64,000 nt of DNA from a virus (taxonomy: Duplodnaviria; Heunggongvirae; Uroviricota; Caudoviricetes): positions 6,312 to 70,311 of IMG/VR virus record IMGVR_UViG_3300011904_000029. The stretch is one strand, 5' to 3'. A program made the translations under genes and the position numbers. Of this stretch, positions 3,431 through 29,011 are shown in pieces; the first letter of the stretch is position 1; each line of letters begins with the position of its first letter. Under the pieces are notes generated by a model, which was not told the DNA's origin, made no database searches, and saw only the letters and a program-made list of their open reading frames with translations.

Positions 3431-3433
3431 TAG

Positions 3434-3462
3434 ATAATACTAATTTATTTCATTAATGTCAA
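3434..3462 (-). promoter_or_regulatory. sigma-A-type promoter TTGACA-17-TATTAT (member of conserved promoter family)
   Basis: minus-strand reading TTGACAttaatgAAATAAATtagTATTAT; -35 at 3457-3462, -10 at 3434-3439. Confidence 0.55.
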
Positions 3463-3670
3463 TGATTATTTATAATTTATTTAATAAATTCGTTATTTTA
3501 TTTTTGGTTTTTTGATTGATGCTTTAATCTTACTTCCTAGCCAGACAAAAGTAATCTCAGTCTTTGGATTAGATCCAATATGTTCAACTTGACCAAACTT
3601 TCTAGGAATCAATGACCATAAAATAAGAGCTACTTTACCCAATTGCCACTCACCTCACTTTTATTCCGAA

Positions 3671-3895
3671 CTACGCATGAAATTCGCTATTAAAACCCAT
3701 CGACTTATAAACCCTCTTTAGTTGTTCATAAGTCATCACATCAATCGTATTTTGTAGTAACTCACGCAATTCTCTTTCTTTCAGTACTTCCAATTTTTCA
3801 AAGGATTGACTGCCGCAGCCACGGCATTTTTCACCAACATACTGCTCTCTTCCGCATCCGAGACAGCAATAATTTTTAGGCTTACTTTTATACAA
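3671..3895 (-). CDS. small zinc-ribbon protein
   Basis: 74 aa with CxxC...CxxC (CLGCG...CRGCG). Confidence 0.4.
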   Translation of the reverse strand: MYKSKPKNYCCLGCGREQYVGEKCRGCGSQSFEKLEVLKERELRELLQNTIDVMTYEQLKRVYKSMGFNSEFHA

Positions 3896-3951
3896 ATTTA
3901 CACACCCCCTTTACTTCACAGTCGTATCTTATACACAATAAATTATCTGCT

Positions 3952-4668
3952 TTATCGTTTAGATTGTCTTTCAATCTCAGCTTTCAATTTCGGTTCTGGT
4001 GGAGTCCATCCTTCAGGCTTAATGATTTTTCCGTCACTTTCTCTGAATTTAGGTTGTCCATTATGAAGTTTTGCCATATTAGCATCTTGAACAATTTTAA
4101 ATAGATTAAATGGCTTTACCCCTAAAATAGTAAATGATCCCTGGTTGAAGTATTCAACATCAGTAAGCGCATCTGCTTGAGCAGTAAGAATGTCATCAAC
4201 TGGCTTTGCTTCTGTAACTTGCTTTTCTACTGCTGCGGAAATACCACTATTAAATTCATCGACTAACTTCTTAAATTCTTCTGTATTGCCACCTACGGTA
4301 GCATATAATAATTCCACTAATTCTTCCCCTGTCCACACAGCGCGGTTTAGTGCCGTTTCTTTATCCATAGGTGTTGGTTTTTCGTTGTAAGGATGGTTGA
4401 ATGCTTTGTGAAATTCCTGCACCATCCAATACATCTCATTAGGATTGTATTTTTTAGTTCTTCTTTTAGGTTTGCGATAGGGTGAAAGGTATTTGGTTTC
4501 TACATTTCTTAACTCAGTAACTCGTCTTTGCTTTTCTCTATCAAACTCAAGAATGAATTCAACTTGTGCTGTTTTACCCATATCTCTACTAAATGAAATA
4601 AGCTTCCCTTTTCTTTTACTTGATTTATCCCAAACCAGGCTGTTTAGTTGTAGTTTTTGATTTTGCAT
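3952..4668 (-). CDS. MazG-like all-alpha nucleoside triphosphate pyrophosphohydrolase (putative)
   Basis: 238 aa; segment WMVQEFHKAFNHPY...TGEELVELLYATVGGN resembles MazG/HisE EExxE-type metal-binding helix; located in nucleotide-metabolism cluster. Confidence 0.4.
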   Translation of the reverse strand: MQNQKLQLNSLVWDKSSKRKGKLISFSRDMGKTAQVEFILEFDREKQRRVTELRNVETKYLSPYRKPKRRTKKYNPNEMYWMVQEFHKAFNHPYNEKPTPMDKETALNRAVWTGEELVELLYATVGGNTEEFKKLVDEFNSGISAAVEKQVTEAKPVDDILTAQADALTDVEYFNQGSFTILGVKPFNLFKIVQDANMAKLHNGQPKFRESDGKIIKPEGWTPPEPKLKAEIERQSKR

Positions 4669-4738
4669 TAGTATATTTCCCCTTTGTATGTAAATTTATT
4701 TTAGATAAGAGAGGAGAATTAACTCCGCTCTATGTGTA

Positions 4739-4987
4739 TTAATTTAATTTATTAATGATCTCGTCTAATCCGTTTGGATTAAAGCCAACTACACGCTGTA
4801 CCTCTTCATCATTGTCATCAATAAGGATAGTTACTGGAACTGAACCAATATCATATTGGGCTGCAATTTCTGGATTATCCATTGGATTAATTTTTTCAAC
4901 AATCACACCTTTGTCATCTAGATAATTTTGAACCATTTGACATGGTTTACAACCTGGTAGCTCAAATTTAAATAGTTTATTAGACAT
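4739..4987 (-). CDS. nrdH: thioredoxin/NrdH-like redoxin
   Basis: 82 aa with CKPC redox motif near N-terminus; immediately upstream gene order redoxin-NrdI-NrdF-NrdE. Confidence 0.55.
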   Translation of the reverse strand: MSNKLFKFELPGCKPCQMVQNYLDDKGVIVEKINPMDNPEIAAQYDIGSVPVTILIDDNDEEVQRVVGFNPNGLDEIINKLN

Positions 4988-5405
4988 ATATTTTCTCCTT
5001 TACTATTTCGTCAAATTGATAAAAGTCACTTTGCTTTGGATATCCTTCAAACTTAAATTTAAACAGTATTTGATTTTTGTCTTTTAATACCTCTTCTAAC
5101 AAATCTAATGCCCCACAGAAAAATTCAAACTCCACTCTTCCGCTTCCAAATAGTCCGATCTTTTTATGAGTAAGCATTCCAAGTTTATCCCTTATTTCAA
5201 AAAAAGGTCTTGGGGGAATACCTCTCCCCCAGGTGGATGTTCCAAAAATAATCGTATCGTATTTATCAAAATCAATATTTCTCTCTTTTCTTATATTAAA
5301 AATATCAAACTCACTTTCATTAAAATACTTTAACATTGCCCTTGTATTTCCTGTTGCAGAATAGTATATGACAGCTTTAGAGGTCAAAGTCTTCGCCGCT
5401 TTCAT
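4980..5405 (-). CDS. nrdI: NrdI flavodoxin-like ribonucleotide reductase stimulatory protein
   Basis: 141 aa; AVIYYSATGNTRAM flavodoxin FMN-binding signature; start may be slightly downstream because the first codons overlap the nrdF 3-prime end. Confidence 0.7.
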   Translation of the reverse strand: MKAAKTLTSKAVIYYSATGNTRAMLKYFNESEFDIFNIRKERNIDFDKYDTIIFGTSTWGRGIPPRPFFEIRDKLGMLTHKKIGLFGSGRVEFEFFCGALDLLEEVLKDKNQILFKFKFEGYPKQSDFYQFDEIVKEKIYV

Positions 5406-6468
5406 GAGTATAGTTAATTGCGTTAGCTTGGAGAAAATCTGTTCTTGTTACAATTTCATCTTCTCCTCCTGTTCTCTTTTTGCTTCCATATGTAGCAATC
5501 CATCTTGACTTTAATTCTTGGTTTTCAGGATAAGGTTCTTCGAGTCCTGCGTTTCTACAGATTAAGTTGGCTAGATATTCCACGTAATCATGATATTCTT
5601 TAATGGATAAAGTATCTATTCCTTCAAAAATGTAACTAGCCCATACTTTTTCTCGTTTAACAGCCTCTTTTATATAATCCATAACATAATTATAATTATC
5701 TTTTGTGGCTAACTGCGGCTCTTCTTTCATTAGAATTTGAATCAGCATTCCATAAAAAGTCGAGTGCATATTTTCGTCAGTCCGAATCATAGAAATTAAG
5801 TTATTAGAGCCAATCATTTTTTGATCCCTTGCCAGAGAGTGGAAATAAACAAATCCCCCACTAAAATAAATTCCCTCTAAGACAAGGTTAGCTACGATTC
5901 CATAAAGAATATCTTGAAGTACCTCATTAGAAACTCCACCTTCATCTTGTTCAGCCATATATATCTTCGCAGCATCGACCATTTTTTGAATCGGATCAAT
6001 TACAAGTTGATTCCTATACACTAATTCAGGAATATTTCTTGTAAATTCAAATGCTTGCTCCTTCTCTTGTTGATTTAATACAGTGGACGTTAAGTATTGA
6101 TAACTTCGATTATGCAATTGTTCAAATGATGCAATCATAGAAATTACCGATCTAACTGATGAATCGGTGCATAAATAACCTAAAACAAAATTAAAGTCTG
6201 TTGCAATAGAATCTAACCAGTTTAATTTACCTGATATAATGTTATATACTTGTCTTTCTCTTGGCGTAAGTTTTTCTCTATACTCCTCAATATCCTTAGA
6301 CAGTTTCACCTCATCTTCTATCCAGTACTCTGCAAATAAAGACTTATTAAAATCGAGCATTGTAGGATACTTGATATTATCCCAATCTCGTATCCCACTT
6401 GATTTCCCCCCAAACACTTTTGTTGCTACGTTGCTTGCTTCTCCATCGTAAATCCGAAAGTTTGCCAT
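5377..6468 (-). CDS. nrdF: ribonucleotide reductase class Ib beta subunit
   Basis: 363 aa; diiron ligand region LVLEGIYFSGGF...IRTDENMHSTFYG, acidic C-terminus ...ESGEDFDL. Confidence 0.85.
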   Translation of the reverse strand: MANFRIYDGEASNVATKVFGGKSSGIRDWDNIKYPTMLDFNKSLFAEYWIEDEVKLSKDIEEYREKLTPRERQVYNIISGKLNWLDSIATDFNFVLGYLCTDSSVRSVISMIASFEQLHNRSYQYLTSTVLNQQEKEQAFEFTRNIPELVYRNQLVIDPIQKMVDAAKIYMAEQDEGGVSNEVLQDILYGIVANLVLEGIYFSGGFVYFHSLARDQKMIGSNNLISMIRTDENMHSTFYGMLIQILMKEEPQLATKDNYNYVMDYIKEAVKREKVWASYIFEGIDTLSIKEYHDYVEYLANLICRNAGLEEPYPENQELKSRWIATYGSKKRTGGEDEIVTRTDFLQANAINYTHESGEDFDL

Positions 6469-6488
6469 TATTTTTATCTATCCCTTCT

Positions 6489-7889
6489 TTATGCTTCACA
6501 CATAATACAGTCTTCGTCACGCTCATATTCTTCTGTGTATGTATAATAAATAGTCTTAAGTTGCTTCTTCCATGCTCCAAGATCTAATCTTAGAAGTTCT
6601 GAGCCTTTGATTGATTTAGGCACGTGCATATTATGACTTACTCCCTGATCTATGAATTTTTGTGCTGCTGAAATTACATTAATTGCCCACATTTCATCCA
6701 TTTCAAATCCTGACTTATAGAACCATTTTGTTTGATTATTGTAGTTTGAAGGAACATAAATTACGTTCAGCCCAGACTTTTCTTCCCGATATATGACCTC
6801 ATATGGAGGGTCAATTGAAGGTGAAGAGTTCATAATCAATGAGTTTGAGCTTGTAGGCGCAATTGCGCTTAAATAAGCATTTCTCATTCCTTTGCTTGCT
6901 AAATCACGAAGTTCACTCCATTCATCAGAAACAAAACCTCGCTTATCAAAGAACTCTCCGGTTTGCCAGTCAGAACCTTCGAATAATGGATACGATCCTT
7001 TTTCTTGTGCTAATTTAGCTGAAGCTCTAATCATTGCTTTTAAATACTGTTTAAAAATGTCTTCAGTAAACTTAGACGCTTCTTCAGACTCCCATCTAAT
7101 ACCTCTAGAAGTCATTAGTGTAACCAATCCCATAGACCCTGCACCTACTGCTCTATAAAGCTTGTTAGTGTGCGTGGCTTGAGGTACAACAGTCCGATTC
7201 AGTGAAATTACGTTATCTAACATACGAAATTGGATATCAACAACACGTTGCAAATCAACATCCTTAGATTCATCAAATACATTATTCAAGACTAAAGATG
7301 AGAGGTTGCAAGTTACTAAACCATCTCCTATAACTTTCGTAACAACAAAGCCATCTTCATCTAAATTCTCAGATATACACCTATCAACTTCCATATTTTG
7401 TATGACCTCACTACAGAGGTTTGATCCAAAAGGCATCCCAACATGTGCATTCGGGTTCATCCTTGCTGCTGTATCATGGAAGTATAAATAAGGAGTACCA
7501 CCAGTTTTTCTTGATGTAAAAATAGACTTGTAAATATCTGTAGCATTAACCACTCGTTTAATTTCAAACGACATATCTTTTTCTGCCTTGCGATACCAAT
7601 AGGTAAAGGCATGATCTTCTTCATTCGGTTCTTCATCAGCCATTAACTTTTTCTTATCATAAAGACGATTCAAGTCAACACCCATCTTCTTCCTGAATTC
7701 ATAAGGATCAAAGATTGTCCAGTTTTGCTTAGATTCTAATCTTCTCATGTACTCATCAGGAAGAGTAACTGCTGTTTTAATTGAATGCGCCCTAAGTTCT
7801 TGAGATCCTGTTTTTAAGCGTAAGTCTAAAAAATCAAAAATATCATAATGCCATACAGGTAGGTATAATGCGATTCCTGCAACTCTTGA
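6489..7889 (-). CDS. nrdE: ribonucleotide reductase class Ib alpha subunit, exon 2
   Basis: contains AGIALYLPVWHYDIFDFLDLR, SNLCSEV active-site motif, C-terminal CxxC tail; exon start placed after intron terminal G at 7890. Confidence 0.85.
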   Translation of the reverse strand, partial: SRVAGIALYLPVWHYDIFDFLDLRLKTGSQELRAHSIKTAVTLPDEYMRRLESKQNWTIFDPYEFRKKMGVDLNRLYDKKKLMADEEPNEEDHAFTYWYRKAEKDMSFEIKRVVNATDIYKSIFTSRKTGGTPYLYFHDTAARMNPNAHVGMPFGSNLCSEVIQNMEVDRCISENLDEDGFVVTKVIGDGLVTCNLSSLVLNNVFDESKDVDLQRVVDIQFRMLDNVISLNRTVVPQATHTNKLYRAVGAGSMGLVTLMTSRGIRWESEEASKFTEDIFKQYLKAMIRASAKLAQEKGSYPLFEGSDWQTGEFFDKRGFVSDEWSELRDLASKGMRNAYLSAIAPTSSNSLIMNSSPSIDPPYEVIYREEKSGLNVIYVPSNYNNQTKWFYKSGFEMDEMWAINVISAAQKFIDQGVSHNMHVPKSIKGSELLRLDLGAWKKQLKTIYYTYTEEYERDEDCIMCEA

Positions 7890-8946
7890 CAAATTTGTTA
7901 CTACCTTATTAAAAGGCGGATAGGTCATTTCTGCCTATCTCTCTATGTCGCCATAGAGTTCAGACTATATCTTCTTGTGCGTGTGGTTATAAAAATTTAT
8001 TTTATATAATATGTATTTCTTTATTATGTAGTTCCATATGACATTCGAAGCATAATGTCTGTAAGTTTTCCTCTTTATTTGCTTCATTAATATCGTCAAA
8101 CTCCTCTATAGGAATTATGTGATGAACATTTAGTGCGTACTTTTCATAACTTTGAGTGTTGCAAATTTGACAAGTATAATTATCTTTTTTGACTTTTCTT
8201 TCTCGTATTCTTGACCACTTACTTCCATATCTATTTGGATTTTCTCTAGAAAACTGTCTATTTACACATCTATTTGAACAATATATTCTTTTATTTGACG
8301 GAACTGTAAAAGAAGGTCTTTCAAATTCCTTTTTGCAACAATAACATATTAATTTAATTGTATTTTGTTCGTTAGCAATATTGATACATTCTTGTGAGCA
8401 ATAGCTTATTTCTTTCCTATCTGCCCAAAACTCTTTATCACATACCTTACAGTTTAAATTATGTTTGTTTTTTCTACATAAATCAGAGCAATAATTACCG
8501 TCTTGTTGTATTCTCTGCTTAGCAATTTCAAACTCTTCTTTGCAATATTTACAATTAACTTTGACTTTTTTTGAGTTAATTGCTCCTAATTTAGCACTAC
8601 ACTTATGTGAGCATGTTCGTTTGGATCGCTCTCTTTTATTTTTTATATTTACTGTAAAAATGCTTTCACATATCTCACATTCCTTATCAACATATTCTTT
8701 TACTCTAGGTATTTATTATTCCTCCCTTGATCGCAACCACACGCACAAGTTTGGTTCGAGTTATAAAATTACTCTTATAACTACTTAGTCGTTGAACCTT
8801 CTACCTGGGAAACCAGGAAGCTCGGCTGCGAATTGCCCGCACTCTTGGGTTTTTAGGGTTCGCCGTGTCATTACTGCACGGTATCCTACCTTGAGATACT
8901 CGGGGTTCCCCGCAATTGACCAATTTTATACTCGGCTCATAAGTTA
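7890..8946 (-). mobile_element. group I intron interrupting nrdE, with embedded HNH endonuclease ORF
   Basis: exon 1 reads ...YVNQLG then stops; exon 2 resumes SRVAGIALYL (conserved YVNQxGxRxGAxAxYL block reconstituted); 5-prime exon end ACUCGGU pairs with internal guide GCCGAGU (U-G at splice site); intron ends with G; GC-rich structured core at 8760-8945. Confidence 0.7.
8002..8712 (-). CDS. intron-encoded HNH homing endonuclease with N-terminal zinc-ribbon repeats
   Basis: 236-codon open frame with C-terminal CQICN...HHIIP...NLQTLCFECHMELH HNH motif; preceded by GGGAGG RBS and TAATAA; no in-frame ATG/GTG/TTG near 5-prime end (first codon ATA). Confidence 0.65.
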   Translation of the reverse strand: MPRVKEYVDKECEICESIFTVNIKNKRERSKRTCSHKCSAKLGAINSKKVKVNCKYCKEEFEIAKQRIQQDGNYCSDLCRKNKHNLNCKVCDKEFWADRKEISYCSQECINIANEQNTIKLICYCCKKEFERPSFTVPSNKRIYCSNRCVNRQFSRENPNRYGSKWSRIRERKVKKDNYTCQICNTQSYEKYALNVHHIIPIEEFDDINEANKEENLQTLCFECHMELHNKEIHII

Positions 8947-9915
8947 ACCGAGTTGATTTACATATTCAGCTAGTACACTACTTAATCGTGATGGATGGAG
9001 AATTCCTGTTGCACGTCCTTTATATCCTCGAATCCATGAACCACTTGCGCGAAGGAACCCTAAATACTTCCCAATTCCTGCACCATTTTGACTAAATCTT
9101 GCTGTTTGTTCTAGGCTATTCATAATACTGATCAAATCATCATCAGGAGTAATAATGTGACATGATGACAATGTTCCGTGAGGCGCACCCGAACTCAGTA
9201 AAGTTGGTGTAGCTAATCCTACATAATGATTAGATAAAGCCCAATATGCTTCTTTTACTAACTCCATTCGCTTGGACTTCTTCTCATCTTTCATAAGATA
9301 GAGAGCAGAGGTTAAGAATCGCTCTTGTGGTAATTCTAAGACCTCGCCATTATAGCCCTTTTTAAGATAAGTATTGTTAAGCATGTAGAGTCCAGCATAG
9401 CTAAATTTTTTATCCTTTTCTTTTTCGATAAACTTTCCTGCTTTATTTAATTCTTTTTCAGTATATTGCTCCGTCAAGCTTTCATCATAAATGCCTTGCT
9501 CAACCATTTGAACAACAAAAGAGTAATAATCACCATAACCATTTTTATAATCAAAGCCCCTATTTTTAGACGCTTGCTTATACATCTTCCTCCTCAAAGT
9601 TGCTGCACTTAAATATGTGAAGTCTGGAGTTGACGGAGATATACAGTCATTTGAAAATCTAATAATCAAATCAAACAACTTGTCTGCCTCAAGTTTTTCC
9701 TTGGAATAAACGTAGTCGAATACATTTGCTCGGATTTTATTTAGAATATCTTTGTCGTATTCTTTCTCTGAATCTGTAATGATTTCATGGAAGAAGCGAT
9801 CAAACCTTTCTTCCATGAAATCTGATTCTTGAATGTGTGATTTTCTATCTTTAGTAATAACCGTCAAACAACTACACCCTTTCAGTCTTAAATTTGGTAA
9901 TAATTTATTTTGCAT
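8947..9915 (-). CDS. nrdE: ribonucleotide reductase class Ib alpha subunit, exon 1
   Basis: ATPTLLSSGAPHGTLSSCHII (radical-transfer Cys loop) and FTYLSAATLRRKMY; ends at 5-prime splice site. Confidence 0.85.
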
Positions 9916-9925
9916 ATATTATAAT

Positions 9926-10228
9926 TTATAAAAATTTATTCTCTACTAGCTCCCTCATCCCAGATATGTAGTCCTCGTCTTCATTTTGGCTTAAATCACT
10001 CATTTCTCCATAAGCCTTAGCCATATCTTCTATGTCAAACTCTCTCTTCTCAACTCTTTCCACTGGAACATCTATCGACTCTAAATACTTTTCAATCATA
10101 TTCGTTATTCGCTCATCTAAGCCCCTAATTACATACTCATTCTCTTTGGCACGTCCAACAGTAACGCAAAATTTTCGATGTGTATATAATGACACATTGT
10201 TCACCTCATAAGATTTATTTTTCATCAC
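9926..10228 (-). CDS. hypothetical protein
   Basis: 100-aa ORF upstream of nrdE in same operon. Confidence 0.4.
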   Translation of the reverse strand: MMKNKSYEVNNVSLYTHRKFCVTVGRAKENEYVIRGLDERITNMIEKYLESIDVPVERVEKREFDIEDMAKAYGEMSDLSQNEDEDYISGMRELVENKFL

Positions 10229-10446
10229 CTAAAACTGCTGAACGTGTCAACTTTACCGTTATTTCTCTTTGCAATTCTATTAAAATATGACGTTGCTTCA
10301 CTCCTAAACTTTGACTCATATTCATACAATCTATTTACACCATCAATATGAATAACCGCATAGAACCGTTTAAACGGATTTACCTTTCCTTCAAACGTGT
10401 TGCTGTATACTGTCCTTTTTAATCCTTTATTAAACGACCCTCTCAT
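10225..10446 (-). CDS. hypothetical protein
   Basis: 73-aa ORF, overlapping stop/start with neighbour. Confidence 0.4.
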   Translation of the reverse strand: MRGSFNKGLKRTVYSNTFEGKVNPFKRFYAVIHIDGVNRLYEYESKFRSEATSYFNRIAKRNNGKVDTFSSFR

Positions 10447-10458
10447 TAACCCATCTCC

Positions 10459-10662
10459 TCATTTTAAATTTAATTCATTTAATATTTGACTAAGACCCTT
10501 TTTTCTTTTAGGGTCAATCTTATAAACCTTTTCTCTTAGCTTATCAACGCATTCTTTATGTCCATAGAATTCATGCCTATTATCTTTTTTGTCTGTAAGC
10601 TGTAATACCCACCTCCCATAATGTATTAAATCCTTACACATACAACAGGTCACTACATCCAA
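10459..10662 (-). CDS. hypothetical small Cys-rich protein
   Basis: 67 aa; CCMC...H...H..C pattern; first gene after promoter at 10690-10718. Confidence 0.4.
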   Translation of the reverse strand: MDVVTCCMCKDLIHYGRWVLQLTDKKDNRHEFYGHKECVDKLREKVYKIDPKRKKGLSQILNELNLK

Positions 10663-10689
10663 AATCTCACCTCACTTTAATTTATATTG

Positions 10690-10718
10690 ATTATAGTAAT
10701 TTATTTAATATATGTCAA
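10690..10718 (-). promoter_or_regulatory. sigma-A-type promoter TTGACA-17-TATAAT (conserved family)
   Basis: minus strand TTGACAtatattAAATAAATtacTATAAT; -35 10713-10718, -10 10690-10695. Confidence 0.6.
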
Positions 10719-10747
10719 TAGACTAAATAGAATATAATCAACCACTT

Positions 10748-10945
10748 TTATATCTGATGTACTTCACTGATCATATCTTGTAGCGTCAAAAATGTTTTAG
10801 TAATATATTCATCAATTTTATACCACTCATCATCTGACAGTTGTTCATGGTTTTCTAAATGTGTTGCTAAATAACCAAGATGTTCATTTGACTTTTCAAT
10901 TAAATCAAGGAGCCTATTTCTTTGATTTTCACTTATATTGCTCAC
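10748..10945 (-). CDS. hypothetical protein
   Basis: 65-aa ORF. Confidence 0.35.
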   Translation of the reverse strand: MSNISENQRNRLLDLIEKSNEHLGYLATHLENHEQLSDDEWYKIDEYITKTFLTLQDMISEVHQI

Positions 10946-11459: not shown

Positions 11460-11503
11460 ACTCCTTTCATCTCCTTTAGACTTATTTATTGTCCAATGGC
11501 TAT

Positions 11504-11893: not shown

Positions 11894-11932
11894 ATCTCCT
11901 TTTAAAATTTATTTCACAATGAAATATTCATT

Positions 11933-12154: not shown

Positions 12155-12203
12155 TTAATCACCTCTTGATAACATTATCCTTTTATCACATTCCTCCTGC
12201 GAA

Positions 12204-14853: not shown

Positions 14854-15570
14854 TTAATTTAAAATTTCAATTTTTAATTTCTTCCTTCCCCATTGCCAAA
14901 CTCTATCCCTATCAGCAATATATAAGTCTAGTATTTTACCTTTTATTGCTCCTCCACGATCTTGGCAAATTCTTGTCCCTACACTCTCAATGTTAATTTT
15001 TGTACCAAATGGAATATGTGGTGGGCAAGCAATAGTTACGCCTTCTTGAACATAAGCTCCACTTGCAGTTTTTCCATAACCTTTATCACCAGGACTCTTG
15101 CCAGTTGACTCATATCCAGCATGGTAAGCAGTAACTTCATAATAATCAACTTTACCAGATGAGTGACTACTTTTATTTGAGCCACTCATATTAGGGCCTG
15201 TATTGCTTTTACTCGTGTTAACACTACTAATGCTTAATCTATTAACCTTATCTTTTAGCCTATGTATTTCATCATCTTTAACTTTAATCTTTTTCCTTAA
15301 ATCTTCATTATTTTTATTTAATTCATTATTATCTTCCTTTAACCCTTTAATTTCTCCTCGCTGCTTTTCCAATTGACTGTTCTTATTGTAAACCTGATCC
15401 ATCAAAACCCTTTTATTTTTCTCTAGCTCATCAATCTCTTTCTGCTTATCTCCAATTGTCTTATTCATATCGTCCACTTTGTTTTCATATTTTACGACTG
15501 TATTCACATTTGCTCCAATCGCAACAGTTAAAGCAAGAGATATGAATATTGCCTTTTGATTAAAATTCAT
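14854..15570 (-). CDS. secreted coiled-coil protein with C-terminal 3D (MltA-like) cell-wall domain
   Basis: 238 aa; N-terminal signal/TM segment, long Lys/Glu-rich coiled coil, C-terminal YYEVTAYHAGYESTG...GKILDLYIADRD 3D-domain signature. Confidence 0.5.
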   Translation of the reverse strand: MNFNQKAIFISLALTVAIGANVNTVVKYENKVDDMNKTIGDKQKEIDELEKNKRVLMDQVYNKNSQLEKQRGEIKGLKEDNNELNKNNEDLRKKIKVKDDEIHRLKDKVNRLSISSVNTSKSNTGPNMSGSNKSSHSSGKVDYYEVTAYHAGYESTGKSPGDKGYGKTASGAYVQEGVTIACPPHIPFGTKINIESVGTRICQDRGGAIKGKILDLYIADRDRVWQWGRKKLKIEILN

Positions 15571-15628
15571 AAGTCCTCCTATTGATTTTTCGTGTTGTTC
15601 TCCGGCCTCCTTTCTATTAATTTATTTA

Positions 15629-15657
15629 ATTGTAATATTTTATTTAATATATGTCAA
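15629..15657 (-). promoter_or_regulatory. sigma-A-type promoter TTGACA-17-TACAAT (conserved family)
   Basis: minus strand TTGACAtatattAAATAAAAtatTACAAT; -35 15652-15657, -10 15629-15634. Confidence 0.55.
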
Positions 15658-15671: not shown

Positions 15672-16916
15672 TTATTTAACATTTAATAGTTGCTGAAATA
15701 ATGCTTCACAAACATTAATAACTATACTATTACCAGTCATGCGATAGAGTCTTGTCTTTGACCTGTCTCTGCCTTTGTAAAACTTATCATTTACTGCTTT
15801 TCTTGCCACTTCGTAATCCCTATCAGTGAAACCCATTAGCCTAAACGCCTCCTTGTTGGTCATTTCCCTAATGAACAAATATTCTCCCTCTGCAATCAAG
15901 TCATCCTCACTCTTGACCAACTTGTATCCATCATCTATTTTTACGGCAAGCTTTAGTCCTTTTATTTGAGTTTTTGACACATTTTCTAATAACTCACTCA
16001 GTTCAATAGGATTTTTTTTATTAAAAATAGCTACCATAAAATCCTTAGTCACAGTCGTCACCGTATTACTTACGTCATCTTTTCTAATCTCCAGTTGTTG
16101 AGGCTGTCCCATATAGCTTCTTGTCCTTAAACTACAGCCCTTAACAATTCTTCTGTCCAAGACAACGTTATATGGAACCCCTTTAGACATATTGGCTGTT
16201 AAACATCTACTAGCATCATGGTCAGAGTCACTATGGTGCTCAAAATCCCAATGGGTTCTACCACCTTTTGTTTTTCTATTCATATACTCGATTGCTTTTT
16301 CAGTATGTATATGATTTTTTAATATATCTAAATCTGTTTCCAATTTATCTGAGAGTGATTTTTGATTAGGCATTGGCTCAGGGAAATCGAATCCTTTATC
16401 AATATCTTTACGAATACTAATCATAAAGATGCGCTCTCTATTTTGAGGAATTCCAAAATCACGAGCATTTAATATTTGCCAGTAGTTGTTATATCCTGCT
16501 TTTTCTAATTCCTCTTGCATTTCTTTAAACTCATTTTCAAACTTTTTACTTGTTAGTCCTTTTACATTTTCCATTAATGCATATTTTGGACTCTTAGCTC
16601 GGATAATTCTGAGAGCATCAAAAAACAATATCCCTCTATGATCATCAAACCCCAATTGTTTACCAGCTGCCGACCATGATTGACATGGTGGAGAGTAGCA
16701 AATAACATCGCAATCCGGTACATCTTCAATGTTTAATGTAGTTATATCCGTAGCAGGAAAATTTGTATTATGTATTGAATTATAGGCGGTAATCGCAAAT
16801 TCATCATTTTCAACTGCTAAAACTGTTTCATGTTCTATATTAAGATTTTCAAGTGATTTTTTCCAGGCTCCTATTCCTGCAAATAATTCAACTACTTTTA
16901 ATTTACCAATAAGAAA
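15672..16916 (-). CDS. DNA (cytosine-5)-methyltransferase (full-length frame; 5-prime end lacks canonical start / apparent frameshift)
   Basis: open frame encodes motif I VELFAGIGAW, motif IV CYSPPCQSWS, motif VI ENV (ALMENVKGL), motif VIII QNRERIFMI; ORF-track call 15672..16655 starts after motif IV at an internal TTG. Confidence 0.75.
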   Translation of the reverse strand, partial: FLIGKLKVVELFAGIGAWKKSLENLNIEHETVLAVENDEFAITAYNSIHNTNFPATDITTLNIEDVPDCDVICYSPPCQSWSAAGKQLGFDDHRGILFFDALRIIRAKSPKYALMENVKGLTSKKFENEFKEMQEELEKAGYNNYWQILNARDFGIPQNRERIFMISIRKDIDKGFDFPEPMPNQKSLSDKLETDLDILKNHIHTEKAIEYMNRKTKGGRTHWDFEHHSDSDHDASRCLTANMSKGVPYNVVLDRRIVKGCSLRTRSYMGQPQQLEIRKDDVSNTVTTVTKDFMVAIFNKKNPIELSELLENVSKTQIKGLKLAVKIDDGYKLVKSEDDLIAEGEYLFIREMTNKEAFRLMGFTDRDYEVARKAVNDKFYKGRDRSKTRLYRMTGNSIVINVCEALFQQLLNVK

Positions 16917-16930: not shown

Positions 16931-16959
16931 ATTATAATATATTTATTTTAGTTCAATAA
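16931..16959 (-). promoter_or_regulatory. possible promoter TTATTG-17-TATAAT immediately upstream of methyltransferase gene
   Basis: minus strand TTATTGaactaAAATAAATatatTATAAT, -10 only 4 nt from ATG at 16926. Confidence 0.3.
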
Positions 16960-17058
16960 AAATTTATTTTATAAATCTACGAGTAATCCCTTGTAATCTA
17001 AGATAAAATAAAACTCTTCTTTTATCGGTATCTCCATACTGTGCAACTCATCTTATTC

Positions 17059-21154: not shown

Positions 21155-21165
21155 TCACCCCTTTA

Positions 21166-22866: not shown

Positions 22867-22881
22867 TTTATTCCTCCTTCA

Positions 22882-23943
22882 TCAATTTATTTTATAAATG
22901 TAATCATTGTAAAGCTTTATCCAGACTTCTTTACCTTTGTCACAGGGCGAGTCTTTTTCATTGAGTAAATTCCCCTTATCAAAAATTACATAACGCAGTC
23001 TGCCTTTTAATTTACTTACCTCGTCAATAATAAAAGCTGTATCTTTATCTTTATCCCAAGCGAATATGAATTTAACCTTTAGACCTAAGTCTTTTAATAA
23101 ACGTATTTGGTGATCTGAAAGACTGTCTCCTTCGATACTAATCACATTTTTGTACCCCCATTGGTATAAAAGCATTACAGTTTTTGCACCCTCTACAATA
23201 ATTACTTCTTGTTTTTTCTTGATTTCGGGCAATGCTCTATGTAGATTGAAGAATTCAATAGATTTGTTGCAGGGCACAAGATAAAGATATTTATACTTAT
23301 CCTCAATTTCCTGATTTTTACCACAGTACCTACCTTTTACCCCAATTAAATCCCCTTGTTTATTGTGTATTGGGAAAGTGATTCTATCACTCAGAACATC
23401 TATACCAACATTAAAATATCTTTGTGTACTTGTGGAGATACCTTCTTTAACCCACCCAAGGTAAGGAATATTCCCAAAGTATTTTAAAATATGTAATGGT
23501 TTGATTTCATTTTCTAATGTTTGAGTCATAGTTTCTTTGTCAATTTTCTTTAACCACTCATTATAACTCGGTTTTACTCTTGTTTCTTCTGCTGTATCTT
23601 TATAAAAATCATCAATAAATTCAAAATACCCTAATTTGTTACATAGCCAATATTTACTTTTGGATAAGTATTCCAGACGCTTTTCAGCCGTAACACCTTC
23701 AAAAATTATATAACTTACAATATCGAAAATACTGCCTTCTATTCCTCGAGATCTTATATGACTCGATAGGTTTTCATTGTTCTTAACTTGCACACTTCGT
23801 TTGTTTTCTCCGTCCGGAAGACCTGCTACATATAGTTTGCCATTTTGCTCAGTATCAATTCCCCAACAACCTAACAATATTAGCACTTCGTCTATTCTTT
23901 TTTCTTTATAGATTCTTAATTTAATTTGCTGAAGGTCAGTCAA
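22882..23943 (-). CDS. DnaG-like DNA primase (TOPRIM domain)
   Basis: 353 aa; VIIVEGAKTVMLL ... ISIEGDSLSD ... FAWDKDKD TOPRIM acidic motifs. Confidence 0.5.
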   Translation of the reverse strand: MTDLQQIKLRIYKEKRIDEVLILLGCWGIDTEQNGKLYVAGLPDGENKRSVQVKNNENLSSHIRSRGIEGSIFDIVSYIIFEGVTAEKRLEYLSKSKYWLCNKLGYFEFIDDFYKDTAEETRVKPSYNEWLKKIDKETMTQTLENEIKPLHILKYFGNIPYLGWVKEGISTSTQRYFNVGIDVLSDRITFPIHNKQGDLIGVKGRYCGKNQEIEDKYKYLYLVPCNKSIEFFNLHRALPEIKKKQEVIIVEGAKTVMLLYQWGYKNVISIEGDSLSDHQIRLLKDLGLKVKFIFAWDKDKDTAFIIDEVSKLKGRLRYVIFDKGNLLNEKDSPCDKGKEVWIKLYNDYIYKIN

Positions 23944-23955
23944 TTTACCACCTAC

Positions 23956-25455
23956 TTAAAAAGAGCCTCCTACTCTTGGAACTTTTACATAAGCAACCTC
24001 TTTAAATGAATTAATGTCATAATTAGCTTCATAGATTATTTGCTCTTCTTCTGATCCAAATCTATTTTTAGCTAAAAATACAACCATATATTGTTTTTTT
24101 GGATCAAGTTTATAAGGTTCTTGAAACCACTCTTCTGATATTTCGTCTTTTTTGTAATTATAGGGTTTTAATGCAAATTTTCCTCCAGGATATTCGTCAG
24201 AGAACAATAATCTTCCCATCATAACTACACTAGCAACTTCATTGATTTCCATACTTTTCCCTGTACTATCTAAGTCTAGAAAACGTGACTCTTTGCCTAA
24301 CTTTAATTGAACCGTAGCCAATGTTCCTACATTATAATTATCTTCCTTGATCAAGTCATGTAACTCTTGTGCAGAATTTGAAAAATGTTCCCAACGTGCC
24401 ATGTCGCTCTGAGAACGATCAGGCTTAAAAGTGTCAATAATCAATTTACTATATCCCTGGGGACGGTACTGTTCTACTCTGCTAAAAATATCCTCCAAAC
24501 GATATTTTTTTAATTCTAAAGTTTTAATAAGTCCTTTTCCATGTTCATTTGCCCATTCCTTAGCTATTTCTAATTTATTTAATGTTTTATCATTGAAATT
24601 ACCTTCAAACATTTTATCTCTATTAATTGGATTCTTATTTATTTTAGATGCAATTGTGGCAAGAAGCAGCGCTCGCCATTTGCTAACACTTTCTTCGTTA
24701 ATTGCTAATAATGCTTTTTCCTGATTTTCAAATAAACTAAGAATAAATTTTTCCATTGCGATTGAACTTTTTCCTACACCAGATGACAGTATTAAATAGT
24801 ATAACGCTCCATTCTTCCACCCCTTAATTTTCCTATTTAACCTTGGGGCATCGTGCAAGGGTATACCCATTGTATCTCCGGCATTTAACTCTTTTATTGT
24901 TTCATCTAAATCTTCAACTAAATCATGCTCTACAACATCTCCTGAATTTATATGAGAAAAAGCTTCTCTGTATTTAACTTGAATGTACAATTCAACTTGT
25001 TTTAAATTCATTTTTGTTAATTTCAAAATTAAGTCTTTATCGTTTATATCAATCAATGATTCTTTTTGTAGCTTTCTTAAACTCTCATACTTCTGAATTT
25101 CATTAAAGTGATACTCTTCATTTTGATCTTGTTCGATACATCTGTCCATTAATTCCTTAATTGTCTCGTATCCTCCAAAATCATTATAAGCATCTATGTA
25201 ACTCTTTTTTCCAACCTCCTTCGGGCGAGAAACTAAAAATGAGTATACAGTTTTATTATCAAAATGTCTTATTCCTTCCTCATACATTTGCCGTCCGACT
25301 GTATAGTAAAAAAACCATACTGATTCAGTAAAAGTTTCATCCGTTATTTTATGTGTTCGGTACTTTTGAAACAAACTAGGATTCGCCCACATGTAACCGT
25401 TAAATAAAGATTCATGTATAAATGAAGGTTCAACAAATTCCTTTAAATATTTCAT
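23956..25455 (-). CDS. DnaB-like replicative DNA helicase
   Basis: 499 aa; Walker A YLILSSGVGKSS, Walker B-like KLIIDTF; positioned between primase and polymerase. Confidence 0.5.
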   Translation of the reverse strand: MKYLKEFVEPSFIHESLFNGYMWANPSLFQKYRTHKITDETFTESVWFFYYTVGRQMYEEGIRHFDNKTVYSFLVSRPKEVGKKSYIDAYNDFGGYETIKELMDRCIEQDQNEEYHFNEIQKYESLRKLQKESLIDINDKDLILKLTKMNLKQVELYIQVKYREAFSHINSGDVVEHDLVEDLDETIKELNAGDTMGIPLHDAPRLNRKIKGWKNGALYYLILSSGVGKSSIAMEKFILSLFENQEKALLAINEESVSKWRALLLATIASKINKNPINRDKMFEGNFNDKTLNKLEIAKEWANEHGKGLIKTLELKKYRLEDIFSRVEQYRPQGYSKLIIDTFKPDRSQSDMARWEHFSNSAQELHDLIKEDNYNVGTLATVQLKLGKESRFLDLDSTGKSMEINEVASVVMMGRLLFSDEYPGGKFALKPYNYKKDEISEEWFQEPYKLDPKKQYMVVFLAKNRFGSEEEQIIYEANYDINSFKEVAYVKVPRVGGSF

Positions 25456-25468
25456 TCAAGCCCCCCCC

Positions 25469-26056
25469 CTACAAAAACTCAGATATATCTAATTCGTCTT
25501 TCTTTTTTTGTTTTATTGGAACTTCATAATCAGATATATTTCTTATCGGTTTTTTATCAATTTTTACTTTTTCTTGATGCTTTATAACCTGTACAACTTC
25601 ATTGACGTTATTTACCATGATTGCGAAGATATACGAAAACTCATTCCATTTATTTTGAAATGTAACATTGTTCAAGGCATATTCGATTTTTCCCTCAGCA
25701 TGTTTATAACTATCCAACATCAATTGAAAGGAGATTCCTTTTTTATACTTCTTGATCTTTCTACCCTTAATTGAGATAGAACCGTTCCTAAAATCTTGTA
25801 ATTTACCTATCATCCTGGTATTAAGAACCTCTAGATTATGAATTTTTAATAGGTAATTATATAGTTTGTCAAATTCCTCAAGTTCCTTTTGTTTTTTCTC
25901 CTTATCATTCAAATACTCAGTATGACATGCGTAGTGAAAATATCTTCTTCGCATTTTTTCTGTTCCATTTTTATTATACTTTCCAGTGGCAGTTGCTTCA
26001 CAATACATTAAACTTTTATCGTGCTTCTCTTTGCACCAAAAGCAGGTTACTTTCAT
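25469..26056 (-). CDS. hypothetical protein with N-terminal zinc finger
   Basis: 195 aa; CFWC...C...H..CH. Confidence 0.4.
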   Translation of the reverse strand: MKVTCFWCKEKHDKSLMYCEATATGKYNKNGTEKMRRRYFHYACHTEYLNDKEKKQKELEEFDKLYNYLLKIHNLEVLNTRMIGKLQDFRNGSISIKGRKIKKYKKGISFQLMLDSYKHAEGKIEYALNNVTFQNKWNEFSYIFAIMVNNVNEVVQVIKHQEKVKIDKKPIRNISDYEVPIKQKKKDELDISEFL

Positions 26057-26121
26057 AAAATTATCCCTCTTTGATAATATTGTGGGAACAGATTTTATTC
26101 TGCCCCCACATTTTTTATAAT

Positions 26122-27276
26122 TTATTTAATAATATTATTTACAATTTTTAAAGCTTTCTTCAAATTTTCAGCATTTCCTTCTTCTTGCTTATAATTTTTA
26201 ATTCCAAATTCCTTATTAAAAGCTTCTGCTGCTTGAACTTTTTGTTCACGTGACATAGAATCTACAATTTTATCAACTTCTGCTAACAAAGCAACTGGAT
26301 CATTTTCAAGTTTATCAGCCACTTCTTTCGCTTTTTCTTCACGATCTTCCTGTTCCTCTTTTTTTAACTCTTCAACTGAACGTGAGGTCTTTTTAAGCTG
26401 TCCTTTTACCGCTTCTTCAAACACTTCTAAAAATTTCTCTGCACTATATTCTACCTTATCTGGAAGGTTAGTGTATCTTCCTCCTGCAATTTCAACGTAT
26501 TCAGAAGGCCGGAAGTACATATAAGTTTTAGTTTCATGGAAATTACTTGCAATCTCACGTTTCTTTTTATCTTGTTTATTATCTTCGAGAATTGTACCGT
26601 CTTTATCTTTTACATATGTCTCATTATGCAAGCAGCAGATTAGACTCGCTTGTGATTCGAAAACTTTTTTTCCTGAATTTGACATCATTAATTGAATTGA
26701 ATTGTATTTTAACCCGTTATGCAAAGTTGTTTCTTTTTCTTTAGTCCATGCTAAGTAGACAAGCCCGTATCCTGCATTTTTTAAAGTATCAAAAGGTTTC
26801 TTAAGTTCTTCATACAGAGCGACCCATCCATTTTCTTTTCCATTGGTGGATTCTGAAATATCTTGTAAGGAATCAAAAGTTTTTCCATACTTTCTCCCAC
26901 GATCATGCATAATCCATGCTGTACAAGCATCAATGGCCCTATCTGCCGTATCTACTCCGATTAATTTTGTAATTCTTCCTTCTTTAGCCTCTTTGACAAG
27001 GGCTGGTACAACTTCTTTCTTAAAGTATTCCCAAACTTTCCATAAATCGCTATCTGTTCCCTCTTCATGTAATGGGACAATGTTATCCAATTCCCACGTC
27101 TCATATCCGTCCTCAAAAGCAAGTAATAAAGATTCGTCTGGTGATTTATAATGAAGTTCTGTTATTTCTTTCCATAACCTGGTTTTTCCGCTTTTGTACC
27201 CCCCAACAATAAGTGTAATAATACTTTCCAATTCCACTTTAGGTACATTTTTTACAACTCTTTTTCTAAATGACAT
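26122..27276 (-). CDS. P-loop ATPase (RecA/AAA-like, replication/recombination associated)
   Basis: 384 aa; Walker A IVGGYKSGKT, Walker B-like LIGVDTAD. Confidence 0.4.
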   Translation of the reverse strand: MSFRKRVVKNVPKVELESIITLIVGGYKSGKTRLWKEITELHYKSPDESLLLAFEDGYETWELDNIVPLHEEGTDSDLWKVWEYFKKEVVPALVKEAKEGRITKLIGVDTADRAIDACTAWIMHDRGRKYGKTFDSLQDISESTNGKENGWVALYEELKKPFDTLKNAGYGLVYLAWTKEKETTLHNGLKYNSIQLMMSNSGKKVFESQASLICCLHNETYVKDKDGTILEDNKQDKKKREIASNFHETKTYMYFRPSEYVEIAGGRYTNLPDKVEYSAEKFLEVFEEAVKGQLKKTSRSVEELKKEEQEDREEKAKEVADKLENDPVALLAEVDKIVDSMSREQKVQAAEAFNKEFGIKNYKQEEGNAENLKKALKIVNNIIK

Positions 27277-27345
27277 ACTACAACATCTCTCCTCGATTTA
27301 TATTTATTTAATTTTAGGTAGACTGATTACATGCTTTTGCATCTA

Positions 27346-28695
27346 TCAAAACGGAAGATCGTCCTCACTTATTTCTACACTAGCAAACGGACTATCTTCA
27401 GGATCTTTTTCTGTTTCTGGCATAATTTCTTCTTCTGTTAAAAGGTTCTTTTTATATGTACCTGTTACATAGTTTAAAATCTCTAACCCTTTTTTAGTTC
27501 CAGTAGATACCTGTTCATAATCAGTAATTTTTTCCCCTACATCTTCAAAAGGATTATCATCTTCTTTCTCTTCAACTTCTACAAGAGTAAATTCGGCACG
27601 GTTATTGTCAATTCCCTCAACCACTAGAAAAGATAAAGGTTCCAATCTTGAAAAAGCATCTGCTAAAGCTGTTTTACCTTCTTCTGGCTCTGTGTAGTAG
27701 ACTTTTAATTCAACATCTTTTGGTATAGATCTTTCTTTACCGTAGTCAAGATAAACAGCATTTACTTTTGTATCTTTGTTTTCTTCTTGATATGTAGATT
27801 TAATTCCAATTTGCATTTCGAATGAATTAATTTCTTTGAAATTTTCATCCTTAAAATCTCTGATATATGGGATATACTCAAAACCACCATCTTTTTTAGG
27901 AACACGTACTTGGCTTTCGGTATTATTACGAACGGTAATTCTTTCACTTTCCACTACATTTTCCGTATATTCTTGCTTGATCCGTTTACCTTCTTTATCA
28001 TCTTCAACTTTACAGATATAAAGTGTTCCTCCTTCGGGTTGCAGCCATCCTACCCGAATTAAAGCGACTCCTTCTTTATTCGCTTTTCCCATACCTAAAT
28101 AATTTCCTTCGGATTCTGAATCATAAACTCTAAATGTTTCGCCCTCTTTTAATCCTTTAATTTCAACTTCACCATTTTTTAACGGATTTACAAAATCAAT
28201 AATTCGTTTTACCGTGTTAATTTCTTCTCCGTCATCATTTACAAATGAATCAAATTCATAGTGACCTCTAACCTCTGCCCACATATCTTTTTTAATAAAT
28301 TTGGATAAACGCTCTGTCTTGTCCCAATCTGTTTCAATAAGATGATAAGTTTCATCAGGATACTGTGCTTTGTCAAAACGATCTTCCCATTCTAAACGAT
28401 GTGTTTTTTTATGTGTAGAACTGTATGCAAACGCTTGGGGCATTTCCATTCCTGCCAATTCCACTTTCAGTTCGTTTCTAAAAGCTGTTTCAATGTTAAA
28501 TTGTAATACTCTACGATCTTTATCTGTTCGTGTTTTGGTTGTATCAAAAATTTCTACATCATACCAACTGTCAGTATCCTGATCTTTTTTTCTTACAGGC
28601 TTCACTAATCCCACAAATTGAAAACTGTTTGAAAACTCCTTACCTTCATGGTTTTTGTTTAATTTGATATCTCCCTTATTCCGCTTTTTCGCCAT
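27346..28695 (-). CDS. putative single-strand DNA-binding / recombination protein with SSB-like acidic C-terminal tail
   Basis: 449 aa ending ...ISEDDLPF, resembling the SSB C-terminal D-D-D-I-P-F protein-interaction tail. Confidence 0.3.
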   Translation of the reverse strand: MAKKRNKGDIKLNKNHEGKEFSNSFQFVGLVKPVRKKDQDTDSWYDVEIFDTTKTRTDKDRRVLQFNIETAFRNELKVELAGMEMPQAFAYSSTHKKTHRLEWEDRFDKAQYPDETYHLIETDWDKTERLSKFIKKDMWAEVRGHYEFDSFVNDDGEEINTVKRIIDFVNPLKNGEVEIKGLKEGETFRVYDSESEGNYLGMGKANKEGVALIRVGWLQPEGGTLYICKVEDDKEGKRIKQEYTENVVESERITVRNNTESQVRVPKKDGGFEYIPYIRDFKDENFKEINSFEMQIGIKSTYQEENKDTKVNAVYLDYGKERSIPKDVELKVYYTEPEEGKTALADAFSRLEPLSFLVVEGIDNNRAEFTLVEVEEKEDDNPFEDVGEKITDYEQVSTGTKKGLEILNYVTGTYKKNLLTEEEIMPETEKDPEDSPFASVEISEDDLPF

Positions 28696-28756
28696 GCGTA
28701 TTCCTCCATTTATTATTTATTTTATATTTATATGTATCAATAAAATTCCTCTTTTA

Positions 28757-28948
28757 TCAATTTAAATATTTTTGGACAACTTTATTCCAATTAGCTTTTC
28801 TGGTTTTATAGTCTGTGTGAACTTTTTCGACTGTATAAAATTCACTTTCAATACTACTATTCATTTGCGATGCATTTTCTCTTTGCAGACTTCCAAATAA
28901 CACCTCCAAATCACTCACTCTTTCCTCTAAAGTCTTCATCATCCTCAC
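28757..28948 (-). CDS. hypothetical protein
   Basis: 63-aa ORF, first gene after promoter 28983-29011. Confidence 0.35.
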   Translation of the reverse strand: MRMMKTLEERVSDLEVLFGSLQRENASQMNSSIESEFYTVEKVHTDYKTRKANWNKVVQKYLN

Positions 28949-28982
28949 CTCCTTAAAGTTTATAAATCAATATTACTCTTCT

Positions 28983-29011
28983 ATAATACTAATTTATTTA
29001 ATATATGTCAA
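28983..29011 (-). promoter_or_regulatory. sigma-A-type promoter TTGACA-17-TATTAT (conserved family)
   Basis: minus strand TTGACAtatattAAATAAATtagTATTAT; -35 29006-29011, -10 28983-28988. Confidence 0.55.

Follow-up and report, generated by a model that had tools for sequence, protein, structure and literature searches.

A conserved spacer element in the early promoters of an SPbeta-like prophage is a candidate operator of an MrpR-family repressor

Promoters of the early region

The DNA analysed here, called the window below, is a stretch of 64,000 nucleotides from the Caudoviricetes record IMGVR_UViG_3300011904_000029 of IMG/VR (positions 6,312 to 70,311). It is the early and replication region of an integrated SPbeta-like prophage, with 32% GC and almost all of its genes on the minus strand, and it carries a family of five near-consensus promoters that share an A/T-rich element in the spacer between the -35 and -10 hexamers (Table 1). 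The genes of the window code for thymidylate synthase, ribonucleotide reductase, a C5 methylase, a YorM-like 3D-domain protein, a family-A DNA polymerase, a DnaB-like helicase, a primase-like protein, an ATP-dependent ligase, a Y-family polymerase with YolD and a Rha/Ant protein. A search of the phage database found no close relatives at the DNA level among deposited phages.

A scan of the whole window for TTGACA-17-TATAAT with at most one mismatch found six sites on the minus strand and none on the plus strand, compared to a mean of 0.9 and a maximum of 4 in first-order Markov resamples. Five of these sites form the family. A position matrix made from the same five gave them 34-38 bits each in a scan of the window, while the next-best site (around 16956) reached 14.3 bits and the best plus-strand site 9.2 bits. 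All five have 11-12 of 12 consensus matches in their hexamers, with A at position 2 and T at position 6 of the -10, and a spacer of exactly 17 nt. Furthermore, all are in coding-strand orientation, with a start codon 56-87 nt downstream preceded by a GGAGG-like ribosome-binding site. According to this anatomy, the five sites would be sigma-A (sigma-70-type) promoters, each of which would restart transcription at the head of a co-directional early block. The sixth site, 40319-40347, is of consensus grade and was rejected as a family member because its spacer is unrelated; a double A-tract word, TAAAATAAAAT, lies upstream of its -35 with 4 nt (ATTG) in between.

The conservation of the family goes well past the hexamers. 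Mean pairwise identity of the spacers is 13.9 out of 17 nt (range 12-16), against 5.3±2.0 for random intergenic 17-mers, and the 17-nt flanks on both sides of the sites fall to 6.7-7.1, near background, so that the conserved block ends at the outer edges of both hexamers. Thirteen of the 17 spacer positions are invariant among the five members and the -10 hexamer varies at two positions; the spacer core is thus conserved more tightly than the -10 itself. Two spacer subtypes can be distinguished, ttaatgAAATAAAwtag (P3462 and P60654) and tatattAAATAAAwtan (P10718, P15657 and P29011).

These data agree in most respects with the original prediction, made from the sequence alone, which had described the first four promoters of Table 1, each ahead of the first gene of a minus-strand block, and had pointed to conservation beyond the hexamers. 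Two of its details have to be corrected. It had given three of the spacers as identical, but only those of P10718 and P29011 are identical over the 16 nt that it quoted, that of P15657 differing at one base. It had also listed a weaker fifth site at 16931-16959 with the core in the same register; this promoter-like site was rejected as a member, as its AAATAAAT lies one position out of register, its -35 matches the consensus at 2/6 positions and it scores at most 14.3 bits, against 34-38 for the family. A motif scan, which it had proposed for the full genome, confirmed the family in the window and placed the true fifth member, which had been missed, at 60626-60654.

So high an identity between promoters that stand at module boundaries could also be the trace of a recent duplication or gene conversion of one cassette with an unconstrained spacer, perhaps acting as homology patches for module shuffling; in some relatives the orthologous promoter is of another type, so replacement has happened. 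Nevertheless, identity stops exactly at the outer hexamer edges in five out of five sites, which arbitrary duplicated tracts would not do, 29 bp is short for homologous recombination, and a block with the same limits is seen again, independently, in many prophages whose words differ (see below). We therefore consider this origin very improbable.

Table 1. Positions of the promoters, element copies, regulatory genes and other repeated motifs in the window and in one unrelated locus.
Feature	Position	Strand	Sequence	Remarks
P3462	3434-3462	-	TTGACA ttaatgaaataaattag TATTAT	spacer also given as ttaatgAAATAAATtag; 37.2 bits; heads thymidylate synthase gene (thyA, 2592-3377), then DUF4379 protein and dihydrofolate reductase (DHFR)
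P10718	10690-10718	-	TTGACA tatattaaataaattac TATAAT	spacer also given as tatattAAATAAATtac; 37.6 bits; 12/12 consensus; heads three small open reading frames (ORFs), then ribonucleotide reductase genes
P15657	15629-15657	-	TTGACA tatattaaataaaatat TACAAT	spacer also given as tatattAAATAAAAtat; 35.0 bits; heads YorM-like 3D-domain gene (14854-15570)
P29011	28983-29011	-	TTGACA tatattaaataaattag TATTAT	spacer also given as tatattAAATAAATtag; 38.3 bits; heads replication operon (63-aa ORF, 449-aa protein, AAA_24-type, YorH-like, DnaB-like helicase, primase-like, RecJ-like, DNA polymerase)
P60654	60626-60654	-	TTTACA ttaatgaaataaaatag TATAAT	spacer also given as ttaatgAAATAAAAtag; 34.2 bits; heads 65-aa ORF (60376-60573), then run of small early ORFs
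Sixth promoter with at most one mismatch	40319-40347	-	TTGACA attaaaataatgtgact TATAGT	consensus grade, unrelated spacer
Partial member	50008-50036	-	TTATTG taaaaaAAATAAATtag TAAAAT	15.6 bits (spacer and -10); upstream of ORF 49729-49983
Promoter-like site	16931-16959	-	TTATTG aactaAAATAAATatat TATAAT	not a family member
Second direct copy at P3462	3473-3485	-	ATTAAATAAATTA	32 nt upstream of spacer copy
Second copy at P15657	15668-15679	-	TTAAATAAATTG	32 nt upstream of spacer copy
Third copy at P15657	15618-15630	-	ATTAAATAAATTA	overlaps last two -10 bases, extends into 5' untranslated region (UTR)
Second, degenerate copy at P29011	29023-29033	-	AAAATAAATTT	33 nt upstream of spacer copy
Isolated copy	26118-26130	-	ATTAAATAAATTA	end of gene 26122-27276, hairpin after it; no -35 hexamer
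Isolated copy	24571-24583	-	ATTAAATAAATTAG	inside helicase gene
mrpR (MrpR/SroF, YopR family)	41467-42462	-		331 aa, integrase-like repressor; candidate binder of the element
DndB-domain protein	42464-43828	-		YopQ/SroE position, directly upstream of mrpR
Second tyrosine-recombinase-like gene	45425-46465	-		YopP/SroD position
Cro/CI-type helix-turn-helix (HTH) gene	41023-41235	+		divergent, 70 aa, yopS position
LexA (Cheo) box	40884-40895		GAACATTCGTTC	perfect GAAC-N4-GTTC
Acidic ORF	40466-40798	-		110 aa, pI 4.9; one gene after mrpR, syntenic with Sar (YopT)
Exact copies of second repeat	52647-52672, 55168-55193, 60587-60612, 60976-61001	-	ATAACAG-N12-ATCRCTG	
Examples of A/U motif	37890-37914, 54340-54360, 35120-35158, 17010-17040		TAAAA-N6-TTTTAT(C)	also in relatives L138-L142
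Promoters of unrelated locus L029	IMGVR_UViG_3300043105_000161, 937-3162 (2.2 kb)	-		2/3 share downstream block aaatatataaagaaaag

The spacer element and its copies

No 13-mer of the window was more over-represented than the spacer core, ATTAAATAAATTA. The k-mer routine put TTAAATAAATTAG/AAATAAATTAGTA at the top of the 13-mer families and, as a check, recovered the known repeated element of SPbeta (SPBRE, see below) as the top repeated 13-mer of that phage. ATTAAATAAATTA occurs six times, all on the minus strand, and two of these copies are the spacers of P10718 and P29011, the remaining four being those at 3473-3485, 15618-15630, 24571-24583 and 26118-26130. The 11-mer ATTAAATAAAT is present in 11 copies where 0.96 are expected, with a strand split of 11:0 in favour of the minus (coding) strand. 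The element can be written as (A)TTAAATAAATTA(G), a double A-tract of about 13 bp that lies within the 17-nt spacer and abuts the -10. The shorter word AAATAAAT has 53 minus-strand copies, being common on an A-rich coding strand, and is thus weak evidence by itself; it was rejected as a signal on its own. A change of this core word that preserves A/T would be, for example, AAATAAAT to ATATATAT.

In addition to the spacer copies, three promoters (P3462, P15657 and P29011) have a second copy 32-33 nt upstream, beyond the -35, and isolated copies occur at the end of one gene and inside another (Table 1). These copies outside promoter spacers fit a protein site better than a feature read by RNA polymerase. 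The element has no dyad, the 13-mer being a mirror repeat, and an operator for an HTH dimer therefore looks unlikely; that model was set aside. An Rfam scan of the window found no RNA family at gathering thresholds, which leaves an RNA explanation for the element without support. A partial member at 50008-50036 has the spacer core in family register and a poor -35. Beyond the window, about 7 kb were read on each side of it on the same contig (DAMDKB010000005.1, GCA_032100165.1); these flanks hold a further partial member (TTTACA aatattaaataaaatta TACATT, 18.9 bits) and two more consensus promoters with a copy of the word 10-15 nt upstream of each -35.

The repressor gene and the putative induction switch

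The prophage end beyond thyA codes for a 577-aa large serine recombinase that adjoins host comGC/comGD/comGF-like genes (L187 17955-20786, on the same contig, around 4.6-7.4 kb past the left window edge; the comGC-like ORF has only 63 aa). This neighbourhood identifies the prophage as integrated, and it suggests integration in or beside the competence comG operon. Promoters so near to consensus need a repressor in a lysogen, and the window codes for a suitable protein. The mrpR product matches the Pfam models MrpR_N_CB (88 bits) and MrpR_C_cat (82 bits; cut-off 27 each), falls below the cut-off of the generic Phage_integrase model, and matches the solved MrpR/YopR structures 8a0a/8bj6 (E around 5e-30) and 9rd5 (1.7e-33). 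Furthermore, the gene order is that of SPbeta: a yopP-like gene, a yopQ-like gene, mrpR and then a divergent small HTH gene. A YopR-like protein, which the original prediction had named as the candidate binder, is thus encoded in the window itself. Its idea of a shared operator also gains support from this gene, the anatomy of SPbeta promoters, the two-A-tract box of phi3T and the prophage relatives, and it is from these that we infer binding.

The perfect LexA box at 40884-40895 lies downstream of a promoter-like site (TTGCAT-17-TATAAT) and 86 nt before the acidic ORF 40466-40798, which by its position would be a candidate SOS-controlled antirepressor. The product of this ORF had no sequence match in Pfam or PDB and no detectable similarity to Sar or YopT, and its single-sequence AlphaFold model (pLDDT 37.6) was unusable. 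A second perfect LexA box, GAACGAACGTTC (52563-52574), is found beside a TATAAT upstream of the Y-family polymerase (51311-52546) and YolD (50954-51307) genes. In the interval 46465-50000, upstream of the sro-like operon, where SPbeta and phi3T keep their arbitrium genes, there is no AimR-like gene (TPR protein of about 380 aa); the prophage may lack arbitrium signalling or encode it elsewhere.

Comparison with SPbeta, phi3T and lambda

The master repressor of SPbeta is MrpR (YopR), and the SPbeta repeated element, SPBRE (Lazarevic 1999, as cited in PMC10516654), is its experimentally shown site, with MrpR peaks that include yorE and yorM (Kohm et al. 2023, PMC10516654). In the regions that we took from NC_001884, SPBRE is the 17-nt spacer aatacaaataatatgta of TAGACA-N17-TATAAT at yorE, yorZ and yonP, and it is also the spacer at yosX, where the -10 is TAATAT; other copies lie beside a promoter or against a ribosome-binding site. 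The element of the window has much in common with SPBRE: both are multi-copy, on the coding strand of the early region, the top 13-mer of their genome or window, and placed in the spacer of sigma-A promoters. P29011 corresponds in position to SPbeta PyorE and P15657 to yorM, so that equivalent blocks are headed in the two phages, and an MrpR-family gene stands in a conserved neighbourhood. In contrast, the two sequences are unrelated (AAAWAATATGTATATAA vs ATTAAATAAATTAGTAT), the -35 is TAGACA in SPbeta and TTGACA in the window, and the repressors are only 33% identical. SPBRE also has a short dyad (ATACA...TGTAT), which the mirror repeat of the window core lacks, and SPbeta PyorE shows no clear double copy at 32 nt, having a partial copy around 38 nt upstream.

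The repressor of phi3T, SroF, is a monomer that clamps a 26-bp box, CATTAAGAATAAAAATAAAATTACTG, reading 24/26 bp; the box centre has two consecutive A-tracts with a narrowed minor groove followed by TTAC, and both the repressor and the operator motifs are phage-specific (bioRxiv 10.1101/2025.11.27.690993). Induction of phi3T goes through a LexA-controlled DNA-mimic antirepressor, Sar (YopT in SPbeta), whose gene lies just after that of the repressor (10.1101/2025.11.27.690993). We found around 25 coding-strand copies of the box core in PP526178, and in four cases the copy adjoins a -35 directly on its upstream side. The window core, AAATAAATTAG/C (AAAT-AAAT-TAG/C), is likewise two A-tracts followed by TTAC or TTAG, with many coding-strand copies at promoters and ribosome-binding sites, and the roughly 24 bp read by SroF compare with a conserved block of 29 bp here. 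A small SOS-controlled antirepressor gene just after the repressor gene would be a further likeness, the ORF of the window being only a candidate. The phi3T box (Phi3TRE) differs in that many copies lie beside ribosome-binding sites and none in a promoter spacer, its A-tracts are longer (AAAAATAAAA vs AAATAAA), and the repressors are 28% identical. The SPbeta core word has no copy in the window and the 13-mer of the window none in SPbeta or phi3T, the phi3T box not having been sought in the window.

According to these parallels, it is likely that the five sites are sigma-A early promoters that carry in their spacer a phage-specific operator of the MrpR/SroF-family repressor encoded at 41467-42462, the spacer element playing the part that SPBRE has in SPbeta and the Phi3TRE box in phi3T. 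A monomeric clamp of around 24-26 bp centred on the spacer would span the -35 to the -10 and exclude RNA polymerase, and such a footprint would explain both the hexamer-to-hexamer conservation and a core that is more invariant than the -10. The upstream copy, 32-33 bp or three helical turns away, would probably let a second repressor molecule bind on the same side of the helix. In the lysogen all five near-consensus promoters would be shut off together, and after DNA damage a LexA-controlled antirepressor, for which ORF 40466-40798 is the candidate, would release them together. Such a system would be a sequence-distinct addition to the known SPBRE/Phi3TRE class, a kind of system that has already been described. 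As at the OR and OL regions of lambda, the presumed repressor sites are multiple, overlap the -35 and -10 of strong early promoters and are phage-specific, as immunity-defining sites are; lambda differs in having 17-bp dyads, HTH dimers and two control regions, against a non-palindromic A-tract word, a presumed monomeric recombinase-fold clamp and promoters spread over more than 60 kb in the window.

Several other DNA-binding candidates are encoded beside mrpR, and the element could instead be the operator of one of them, namely the HTH protein of 41023-41235, the DndB-like protein at the SroE position or an early regulator, or of an A/T-preferring host nucleoid protein. TACTA or TAGTA, reportedly preferred by Rok of B. 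subtilis, is present at the junction of spacer and -10 in 4/5 sites. However, a direct repeat that is not palindromic is more to be expected of a monomeric clamp than of an HTH protein acting as a dimer. The design with two A-tracts also agrees with the solved complex of SroF and DNA, and the 13-mer of the window seems to track the MrpR clade (see below). All of this makes a different binder unlikely in our view, even if MrpR may need additional factors for its specificity in vivo (PMC10516654) and SroE is a second repressor whose mode of action is unknown (10.1101/2025.11.27.690993).

Phage-specific words in related prophages

To compare the element between genomes, we used replication-region loci of SPbeta-like prophages that were retrieved via the conserved helicase and polymerase. 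The word of Cytobacillus gottheilii is AAAATAAATTGA; its yorE promoter reads ttaAAAATAAATTAAaaaattacTTTACAtattaAAAATAAATTGAtattat, a second promoter is nearly the same and 12 further copies occur in 22 kb. Sporosarcina globispora has AAAATAATTTAA, loci L157-159 have AAAAAATAAGTA with TAGACA, and loci L169-171 have ACAAATAACATA, the promoters at the yorE and yorM positions of L169 having an identical spacer. The matrix of signature words against loci is essentially diagonal, that is, spacers hardly vary within a genome but differ from one genome to the next. Exact and degenerate promoter scans of viral_contigs and genome_contigs did not find the exact family of the window in other genomes. Apart from L029 (see below), an unrelated contig with a promoter family of its own, they gave single matches only, and those in L009, L145 and L146 were discarded, as on inspection they look like chance.

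Additionally, distances between a spacer copy and copies of the same word upstream of it show a sharp peak at 32 nt (12 cases, and 17 at 31-33 nt) in 25 loci with 540 kb, while none was seen on the opposite strand at 31-33 nt and resamples gave around 0.3 for each offset. Minor maxima of 5, 4 and 3 cases stand at 21, 38 and 42 nt, respectively, and the first and last of these fit helical phasing. We tentatively propose, as a reading with somewhat less than an even chance, that Bacillaceae SPbeta-like prophages share a bipartite operator, with one 13-bp word at the -10 and a second 32 bp upstream, so that two clamps would bracket the -35. To our knowledge this 32-bp double-copy layout has not been described for SPbeta or phi3T; together with its spread among prophages of Bacillaceae, it is the only part of the system that may be new.

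The relation between word and repressor was looked at in loci carrying mrpR. ATTAAATAAATTA has 3 copies in the 42 kb around mrpR genes with 57-77% identity to that of the window (77% in the S. fordii relative) and none in the 355 kb where MrpR is at most 44% identical, and one of those copies is conserved just after the mrpR terminator. This tracking of the MrpR clade is the only direct hint that repressor and operator co-vary. The nearest published phage, Perkons (MT325768), has an MrpR 44% identical and a different repeat, TATAATTAAG(G/T)TG: Perkons 1-85000 (L143 and L144) holds 45 copies of TATAATTAA, mostly as TAnTATAATTAAG(G/T)TG, consisting of a -10 followed by a conserved block, without a -35 at 17 nt or a -35 family.

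A/T-rich words of this kind may also act on RNA polymerase directly. A-tracts are known to change DNA shape, and spacer and upstream word could only tune promoter strength, through the shape or twist of the spacer and an UP-element-like contact with the alpha subunit, with no phage regulator involved. The consensus-grade hexamers would agree with this, as would the upstream copies in the zone from -46 to -58, where UP elements lie. Selection by the polymerase should nevertheless converge on one optimum in related hosts, and the words differ between prophages. In addition, the same word is found beside ribosome-binding sites and in other places away from promoters, the -10 is less conserved than the spacer core, and the equivalent spacer of SPbeta is an experimentally shown repressor site. 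An effect on promoter strength alone is therefore a rather improbable explanation of the family.

The MrpR operator remains our preferred reading, and several points weigh against it. Strong promoters in low-GC hosts may in general carry some of this signal: the unrelated viral contig L029 (28% GC) has AAATAAA at the corresponding spacer positions of three TTGACA-N17-TATAAT promoters, a finding that also favours the promoter-strength explanation. With its low-complexity A/T sequence in a genome of 32% GC, the element may have some extra copies that are compositional. It matches neither SPBRE nor the phi3T box base for base, sharing only the two-A-tract design; operator motifs are published as phage-specific, however, so this mismatch does not exclude membership of the SPBRE/Phi3TRE class. 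No full family member lies within 10 kb of mrpR, unlike in SPbeta. The close helicase relatives L138-L142 have TTGnAA-16-TGnTATAAT with a variable spacer at the yorE position, and together with Perkons they indicate a design that is common, not universal. Lastly, the mrpR loci (L134, L136, L178-184) and the helicase loci (L137-L177) come from different contigs, so that repressor and operator are not paired in the comparison, and the role of MrpR as binder in this phage is one that we infer.

If the reading is true, the 29-bp block would give from sequence the operator and regulon of an uncharacterised MrpR/SroF-type repressor, with at least five early operons of the window in the regulon and more beyond it, and a third sequence-distinct operator type beside SPBRE and Phi3TRE. 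It would also help to define how a monomeric repressor with a recombinase fold reads DNA, through A-tract shape and flanking bases. Promoters and operators would evolve in concert in each genome, so the word could give immunity groups from sequence, and the 32-bp layout, with its uniformity within and diversity between genomes, could extend such prediction to Bacillaceae genomes and metagenomes. As genetic parts for Bacillus-type hosts, the promoters are also compact and near consensus, and their repression is probably tight.

Other features of the region

A G+C-rich hairpin of 10 bp followed by UUUUAUUAU lies at 3406-3431 on the minus strand (dG -16.5 kcal/mol, z -2.9), starting 3 nt after the -10 of P3462. 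Transcripts from P3462 would miss part of its 5' arm, so that the hairpin may stop read-through from upstream and let P3462 transcripts pass; alternatively, it may be a 5' stabiliser. In the block headed by P10718, the gene for the large subunit of ribonucleotide reductase is split (8944-9915 and 6489-7928) by a 1-kb non-coding gap, 7893-8943, which contains a 57-nt stretch 96.6% identical to Lysinibacillus phages, suggesting an intron; it gave no Rfam match at gathering thresholds. The C5 cytosine methylase gene (15672-16910, start near 16907) is broken into two ORFs, 15672-16655 and an upstream piece, which may reflect a frameshift or a sequencing error.

A second repeat family, ATAACAG-N12-ATCRCTG, has four exact copies in the window where none is expected and 12 copies within two mismatches where 0.7 would be expected. 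The family is found only in the 52-63 kb part, with around six near-copies between 53.4 and 63.3 kb, and one copy lies in the 5' UTR between P60654 and the first gene; its spacing is unlike that of a sigma-A promoter. Finally, A/U hairpin-like motifs of the form TAAAA-N6-TTTTAT(C) are placed directly upstream of ribosome-binding sites in many short intergenic gaps, and relatives have a repeated TTAAATAATAwT-N5-TTTTATnAAA unit, so this motif may be an intercistronic RNA element.

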